NCBI GenBank assembly: GCA_951406725.2
Contig: OX597815.1
Span: 69,316,001 to 69,380,000 of the forward strand
DNA length: 64,000 bases
Reading direction: 5' to 3'
Origin: Octopus vulgaris
Lineage: Eukaryota
Part shown: piece after piece, positions 18,489-18,847 of the stretch
Layout: every line of letters begins with the position of its first letter
Numbering within the stretch: the stretch's first letter is position 1
Made by a program: the position numbers and the translations under genes
Notes under the pieces: model-generated
Told to the model about the DNA's origin: nothing
The model's input: the letters and a program-made list of their open reading frames with translations, nothing else
The model's database searches: none

Positions 18489-18847
18489 TATATAGAATGT
18501 AGTAAAAAGTGAAAAAACTACAGAAGGCTTGTTTTAAAAGGTTAAAAAATATATTTGAGTCATTATGTCAGAAGAATGTTATAAAATTTTTTCATACAGT
18601 GACATAGTTTTAAAAAATATCGAAGCGAACGCCGGCAGAGCGCCAGTCGGCATCGTTCACGGTTGGAACTACGACGGTATCTGATCGTCTTCGAACCTCC
18701 AACTTTCACTTCGATATTTCTTCAAAAACTATGTCACTGTATGAAAAAATTTTATAACATTCTTCTGACATAATGACTCAAATATATTTTTTAACCTTTT
18801 AAAACAAGCCTTCTGTAGTTTTTTCACTTCTTACTATTTTCTATATA
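18489..18847. repeat. Long inverted repeat (~140-bp arms) enclosing an 18S rRNA fragment
   Basis: agtgaaaaaactacagaaggcttgttttaaaaggttaaaaaatatatttgagtcattatgtcagaagaatgttataaaattttttcatacagtgacatagtttt is mirrored at 18724-18830. Confidence 0.95.
18619..18707 (-). pseudogene. 18S rRNA fragment, copy 2 (hairpin loop)
   Basis: Same SSU segment as 12410-12498 with two CpG-type substitutions. Confidence 0.92.

Follow-up and report, generated by a model that had tools for sequence, protein, structure and literature searches.

EN+ Penelope-like elements (PLEs) encode a reverse transcriptase (RT) with a C-terminal GIY-YIG domain. In the accessible text of two studies (Arkhipova 2013, PMC3846280; Craig 2021, PMC8557442), they occupy microsatellites as head-to-head arms, with an inverted, 5'-truncated pLTR and a tail of 30-40 nt on one end. 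Unrelated DNA caught between pLTRs is reported there; rRNA capture and truncation or joining at a ribozyme cut do not appear in that text. The pLTRs of described PLEs hold hammerheads with a U3-A8 core variant, a palindromic loop III and short stems. A 2014 paper on PLE hammerheads states that evidence for cleavage in vivo is absent, and a 2024 in vitro study of an anole PLE describes, in its accessible text, cleavage as dispensable and no RNA ends at the cut. In U6/LINE-1, U3/L1 and 28S/L1 chimeras a cellular RNA lies 5' in the same sense, RNA breakpoints recur, and RtcB ligation or template switching is given as the route in the text available (Moldovan 2019, PMC6789731; Cell Genomics 2026, PMC13174262). 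Retrozyme ribozyme ends are joined by RtcB in vitro, according to the accessible text of PMC7229834 and bioRxiv 10.64898/2026.07.22.740005. Octopus 28S rRNA has a discrete break in H88 (PMC13321053, available text). The accessible parts of PMC11167929, PMC4209133, PMC6466107, PMC13282606 and bioRxiv 10.64898/2026.05.26.727988 also underlie the PLE, ribozyme and chimera comparisons.

Here we describe a hairpin in a 64,000-nt window of the Octopus vulgaris genome (contig OX597815.1, positions 69,316,001 to 69,380,000), in which a fragment of 18S rRNA is joined to PLE arms. The RT and GIY-YIG motifs of the parent, the head-to-head arms, the microsatellite target and the one-sided tail are those of EN+ PLEs, and the hammerhead of the family matches described PLE hammerheads in core, loop III, stem length and pLTR position. 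Unlike in the PLE cases of the accessible text, rRNA has been captured, and genomic copies start and join at the predicted ribozyme cut. As in U6/L1-type chimeras, the cellular RNA lies 5', in the same sense, with a precise joint. The partner, however, is a PLE in (TA)n rather than a LINE-1 with poly(A) tail and target-site duplication, and there is no poly(A) tail. The joint is fixed at the predicted cut, where that of L1 chimeras varies, and is often mirrored on both arms; the captured RNA is 18S, which has 0 mentions in the accessible text of PMC13174262. In its working the insertion resembles U6/L1 and 28S/L1 chimeras, yet it does not belong to their class. It differs from retrozymes in its foreign RNA partner and in being a one-off inverted insertion rather than a tandem family; tandem units at two other loci (L285 and L084, below) do resemble those of retrozymes. 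The rRNA break that it points to differs from the H88 break in lying in 18S, which the accessible text of PMC13321053 does not mention, and it appears partial and is inferred from fragment ends. No report of rRNA-PLE chimeras or of joints at PLE ribozyme cuts was listed in the literature accessible to search; Arkhipova's earlier reviews, subscription journals and supplements could hold such notes. The main text of the octopus repeat annotation paper does not mention hammerhead, rRNA or chimera. It is the joint, not the hairpin shape, that is new.

The two inverted arms (18488-18620 and 18716-18848) measure 133 nt each and are 95% complementary, in agreement with the near-perfect inverted arms described in an earlier note on this DNA. 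The minus strand folded as a single long stem with an energy far below that of shuffles (z = -35.5; 0 of 100 shuffles were equally stable). Folded as DNA, the cDNA stretch had no notable tendency to snap back (z 0.0). From left to right, a (TA)n target repeat (18436-18452) is followed by a 35-nt PLE tail on the minus strand (18453-18487), which flanks the left arm only, and by the tailed arm (18488-18618, minus strand). This arm consists of the 3' part of the PLE pLTR, starts at the predicted hammerhead cut and has a 2-nt deletion close to the joint. Between the 133-bp arms lies the 18S fragment (18619-18710, minus strand), in the same sense as the tailed arm, and its final 11 nt recur as an inverted copy (18705-18715, plus strand) made up of a 6-nt microhomology (18705-18710) and 5 nt more. 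The tailless arm (18716-18848, plus strand) holds the same 3' part of the pLTR and starts exactly at the predicted cut; the right (TA)n target repeat (18849-18859) runs on from 18842. Pairing therefore extends 11 nt into the rRNA (18619-18629 with 18705-18715), as had been noted from the sequence.

A second, broken copy of the left half was found 6 kb upstream of the hairpin (12163-12511, minus strand), with a SINE piece, the tail, a shortened arm and 18S sequence at 12410-12501. This copy lacks two mutations private to the main copy and kept two ancestral 18S bases; it arose after the main copy. The 349-nt copy is embedded in another SINE-like repeat and has the look of templated repair patching in which some of the arm was left out and copying ended at the hairpin. 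A second pLTR-like repeat (18860-18960) directly adjoins the hairpin. Elsewhere in the window, another PLE-type RT-like frame was recognised by eye (47219-48004, minus strand), and there is a charged, repetitive open frame of 258 aa (61521-62297, minus strand); neither gave a Pfam match. Rfam listed no hammerhead in 17500-19900, a range in which the ribozyme lacks its 5' half, and the SCARNA7 and mir-84 matches listed there were far under their cut-offs. None of the contigs of X2, X4, X6 and X8 over 18570-18665 bridged the joint; such a gap is no evidence against the structure, and the insertion may be absent from those animals.

The arms recur genome-wide, as the earlier note had considered possible: a 26-mer from the arm had 307 exact matches in the 2.8-Gb genome. 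The arm search yielded 887 candidates, of which 40 were scored. Among 120 loci, 36 head-to-head rows were seen (35 distinct hairpins, one row being a duplicate), and 33 of the 36 had one tailed and one tailless arm. The tailless arm was the longer one in 21 of these 33 rows and the shorter in 8, with equal lengths in the other 4. Inversion junctions mostly had 0-8 nt of overlap or short filler, and filler of 12-75 nt was present in other hairpins. The two arms of one hairpin differed by a median of 3.4%, compared with 6.0% to other copies, and a rare variant was common to both arms in 8 of 32 pairs. This closeness fits a single template, and equally a single source locus or gene conversion. 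RT and C-terminal GIY-YIG motifs were present in broken copies (L087, L088, L108, L282). The parent ORF just missed the curated Pfam cut-off for RVT_1 (29.5 bits, E 7e-7; cut-off 29.6) and lay under that for GIY-YIG (16.9 bits, E 0.008; cut-off 22.6); upstream of GIY-YIG it carries a CX2-5CxxC motif, as would suit the Neptune/Nematis clades. Short frames of L002 gave no Pfam match. By ORF, layout and motif, the parent of the arms is a high-copy EN+ Penelope-like element, and the PLE origin that had been suggested for the arms holds. Since head-to-head arms with a tail on one side and a microsatellite target are the standard PLE layout (PMC3846280 and PMC8557442, accessible text), the hairpin shape is an ordinary by-product. 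A MITE or foldback DNA transposon was rejected because the arms are asymmetric and run on into an RT-EN ORF; a non-LTR retrozyme was rejected because there is one inverted unit, which lacks the 5' part of the ribozyme. An rDNA remnant was also rejected. Three copies of this family (L024, L094, L097) adjoin a similar non-family sequence, perhaps a second repeat that is often met.

Intact copies carry a minimal hammerhead just upstream of the position where both window arms start. It is ordered as stem I, the U3-A8 core, a 2-bp stem II, the palindromic loop III and then GUA or GUC. A hammerhead descriptor ending at the joint, a sequence motif only, fitted 78 of the 114 copies of the family, against 0 of 2280 shuffles. 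The cut triplets were GUA in 67, GUC in 44 and another triplet in 5, with GUC enriched by the way copies were picked. Both window arms start exactly at the predicted cut and are joined bluntly to 18S nt 1633. The cut is also a hotspot of truncation: among loci picked by a pattern located away from the cut, 31 had their inner end inside a 200-nt range, and five of these stopped within 4 nt of the cut (p 0.007). Among sampled arm ends, 9 of 88, about one in ten, were at the cut.

Two patterns for copies without the normal upstream bases gave 40 matches. By reading, 12 of these were intact with a changed triplet and 19 were loci broken at the cut, 3 of which may be microhomology deletions. The others adjoin (TA)n, sequence of their own (the mirror arm or the downstream part), unassigned DNA or 18S; the 18S cases are the window locus and a 19-nt piece in L246. 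At three loci (L240, L247, L509), copies ending at the ribozyme site join (TA)n directly, which indicates that RT does run off unligated ends.

The loop of the hairpin is SSU rRNA, as the earlier note had recognised (Rfam SSU_rRNA_eukarya, minus strand, 57.7 bits, E 3e-14), although its length is 92 nt (18619-18710) and not the ~85 nt then given. It corresponds to nt 1542-1633 of the 2647-nt 18S of this genome. Aligned to the rDNA array of the species itself, 87 of 92 bases were identical, and all five changes were transitions, four of them at CpG. We compared 40 ends of other dispersed 18S fragments in the range nt 1543-2024; the window hairpin, one end at nt 2065 and the second L439 arm are not counted among them. 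Five ended at nt 1632-1633 (p ~7e-7) and five at nt 1913-1918 (p ~0.01 after correction); the uniform null behind these values is rough, since queries were placed beside both end clusters. In the Rfam alignment, nt 1633 is the final base of a hairpin loop, which we take to be ES7/helix 26. Many fragments span this position, so that any 18S break there would be partial. The 18S gene (L170, 3282-5928; 2647 nt) has a large GC-rich insertion in the 3' variable region, and the base of this insertion is the location of the L246 piece and of the second end cluster.

The H88 break of 28S served as a positive control; the 28S of this genome carries the motif published for incirrate octopuses. No exact fragment end at the break was seen among the candidates scored (40 of 123 and 40 of 172); the nearest ends among those scored were at -3, -3, -9 and +6.

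Partners were checked for nine fragments at the two 18S end clusters. Five were PLE-like, three were other repeats and one, the partner of L408, was single-copy. All five PLE-like partners were joined at the predicted cut or at most 1 nt from it. In total, six loci from five PLE-like families have 18S joined within 1 nt of their own predicted cut; four are clean and two are weaker. The window hairpin belongs to family 1, as does L246, which has its 19-nt 18S piece at the cut; because L246 was found by searching the cut, it is an extra case that adds no specificity. In L046 (family 2) 18S lies at the cut with no added bases, and in L439 (family 4) it does so on both arms, again with none. L440 (family 5) has 18S at the cut on both arms with a non-canonical motif, and L153 (family 3) has two mismatches and 18S that is 1 nt short at the cut. 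None of the four clean joints has added bases. In all six chimeras the 18S is in the same sense, with mature rRNA sequence at each joint; the earlier proposal of rRNA capture via an RNA intermediate was borne out.

Families 2, 3 and 5 show tailed and tailless ends, (TA)n and head-to-head pairs, with no ORF in their 1.5-kb flanks, and are putatively PLE-like by layout alone. Family 4 has a single GIY-YIG-like frame, recognised by eye (L471). One of its six loci truncated exactly at the cut carries rRNA (L439), and many GUG triplets occur among its listed variants. The cut-site pattern of family 2 had three matches, none of them truncated, and no new rRNA case was found in families 4 or 2. The hammerhead descriptor matched 0 of 16 copies of family 2, and 10 of 19 once a 100-nt stem II was allowed. 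In copies of this family (L220-L238) the hammerhead core is canonical and stem II spans ~100 nt, which may be an intron like that of the Drosophila element. Family 5 gave 0 of 17 descriptor matches; its copies (L480-L498) show a motif that resembles a hammerhead, except that one conserved core base differs and stem I is weak. At L440 the joint coincides exactly with the predicted cut of this variant motif.

The same foreign joint occurs on both arms at five loci: the window hairpin, L439, L440, L284 and L279. L284 (C24:30.269 Mb) and L279 (C30:16.67 Mb) each have one foreign sequence joined at the cut on both of their arms, of 122 nt and at least 229 nt, respectively. L511 has both of its arms at the cut and an insert of 25 nt that lacks a mirrored counterpart. 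Two further loci, L285 (G000:C2:37543000-37545400) and L084, consist of head-to-tail units of ~460 and 200-230 nt with identical joints at the cut, each unit comprising the 3' product of the ribozyme and downstream sequence of the element itself. They are candidate retrocopies of circular RNA; later DNA duplication could also give tandem units.

Three non-PLE repeats (L158, L159, L050) are joined to the nt 1632-1633 end at internal, non-ribozyme positions. L158 (C18:28.555 Mb), a single insertion that shows a target-site duplication, combines an inverted repeat fragment and the 3' end of a repeat with two 18S pieces, the second of which stops at nt 1633. The partners of L159 (L290-L303) form a LINE-like element with an ORF1-like frame, the 5' end of which begins with the 5' part of the common SINE; this may be a SINE-LINE partner pair or a shared promoter. 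An automatic partner classifier run on 100 fragment ends recovered three of five known cases, so its blanks mean little.

Several explanations of the hairpin were weighed. Palindromes are prone to fold-back assembly artefacts, and a fold-back chimeric read could produce such a structure. We regard this as highly improbable: the arms have mutated independently of each other from the family state, differ by a canonical tail and lie in (TA)n, and the diverged copy 6 kb away repeats the joint. Just as remote is a hairpin-capture system under selection, or a functional dsRNA presenting 18S in its loop. The stem is very stable, and the other inserts that the earlier note considered possible in other hairpins do exist, with a loop of more than 20 nt that fails to align to the PLE in 4 of 35 distinct hairpins. 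Such loops are rare and unrelated to each other, however, the layout is a textbook PLE by-product, and the 18S hairpin is known from a single locus and its broken local copy only. The CpG-type changes in the 18S piece are those of neutral decay and lend no support to the proposed ADAR or Dicer role. The hairpin is decaying by ordinary mutation, with no sign of selection or function of its own. Capture at the DNA or repair level, in which two cDNAs, both ended by run-off at the cut, were bridged by a patch of 18S cDNA or of rDNA, would suit the 12-75 nt filler of other hairpins and the templated patching close by at 12163-12511. It leaves unexplained the same 18S 3' nucleotide at six loci, which largely excludes it, as well as the same sense in 6 of 6 PLE chimeras and the mature rRNA at each joint; we consider it improbable.

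End-to-end template jumping is a serious possibility, to which we give somewhat less than an even chance. RT would run off the ribozyme-cut 5' end onto a broken 18S 3' end and copy 92 nt; the cDNA would then fold back on the 6-nt microhomology and serve as template for the whole second arm or for its first bases. On this reading the RNAs were never fused. R2 RT performs such end-to-end jumps. Run-off at the cut is observed in the joints to (TA)n, the inversion has 5 templated nt beyond its microhomology, and the insert of L511 is unmirrored. The tailed arm has the longer 18S piece in 3 of 3 two-armed cases, compared with a longer tailed arm in 8 of 29 unequal rows. Template switching is also an accepted route for LINE-1 chimeras, according to the accessible text of that literature. 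The four clean joints without added bases and the identical repeated joints in L285 and L084 argue against a jump. Fold-back cannot account for second arms in general, barring frequent central deletions. The fold-back or template-switch product of the earlier note is retained as a candidate for this locus, and it is doubtful that second arms usually arise by fold-back, given that the tailless arm is longer in 21 of 33 rows.

The explanation that we prefer, with even chances of being right, is that a ligase joined ribozyme-cut PLE RNA to the end of a broken 18S and that the chimera was then retrotransposed into (TA)n, where the copy is now decaying. Ribozyme cleavage in the germ line would leave a 5'-OH on a ~165-nt 3' product. 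18S rRNA would have a preferred break after nt 1633, within an exposed loop, with a cyclic phosphate at the new end, and an RtcB-type ligase would seal the two. The PLE protein would then nick both (TA)n strands and prime once at the tailed and once at the tailless start site. Two cDNAs of the chimera would result, with 92 nt and at least 11 nt of 18S, and would anneal through the 6-nt microhomology. Both strands are extended from two start sites by PLE machinery in vitro, and RtcB makes U6/L1 RNA and circularises hammerhead RNAs in vitro, in the accessible text of the respective studies.

Only about one in ten arm ends lies at the cut, yet 5 of 5 PLE partners are joined there, which argues that joining required a genuine 5' end of RNA and a genuine 3' end of 18S. 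Ligation before retrotransposition is favoured by the matching end chemistry, established for hammerheads and inferred for the rRNA break, by the blunt joints and the same foreign joint on both arms at five loci, and by the head-to-tail units closed at the cut, as circular RNA would give. The longer tailless arm suits two separately primed cDNAs, unless central deletions are frequent. Against ligation, an end-to-end RT jump predicts identical blunt joints, the 28S H88 break is without an exact fragment end, and the non-PLE repeats L158, L159 and L050 share the 18S end at non-ribozyme positions. A broader scheme, which we put forward tentatively, is that germ-line PLE cleavage is routine and that 5'-OH products are ligated to any cyclic-phosphate end, whether of 18S, of other RNAs or of their own 3' end to give circles. 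The chimera would be copied twice by a dimeric RT, and the insertions would record ribozyme activity together with site-specific 18S breaks, after nt 1633 and near nt 1913-1918.

The joint on the ribozyme cut and the recurrent 18S end are the key feature of the locus and were absent from the earlier note. Whether the minimal hammerheads of animal PLEs cleave in vivo, and for what purpose, is the open question that they address. Since a joint of the same kind occurs at five other places, the ribozymes likely cut in living cells and their ends were likely joined to broken rRNA. Insertions that start at the cut in several families and are fused to one rRNA end provide genomic evidence of cleavage, and evidence that ribozyme-cut products serve as templates. 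That the same foreign joint can occur on both arms constrains models of inversion, and from the joints one would predict two breaks in octopus 18S that can be mapped. As DNA the locus is junk, and what it offers is fossil evidence about in vivo cleavage by PLE ribozymes.
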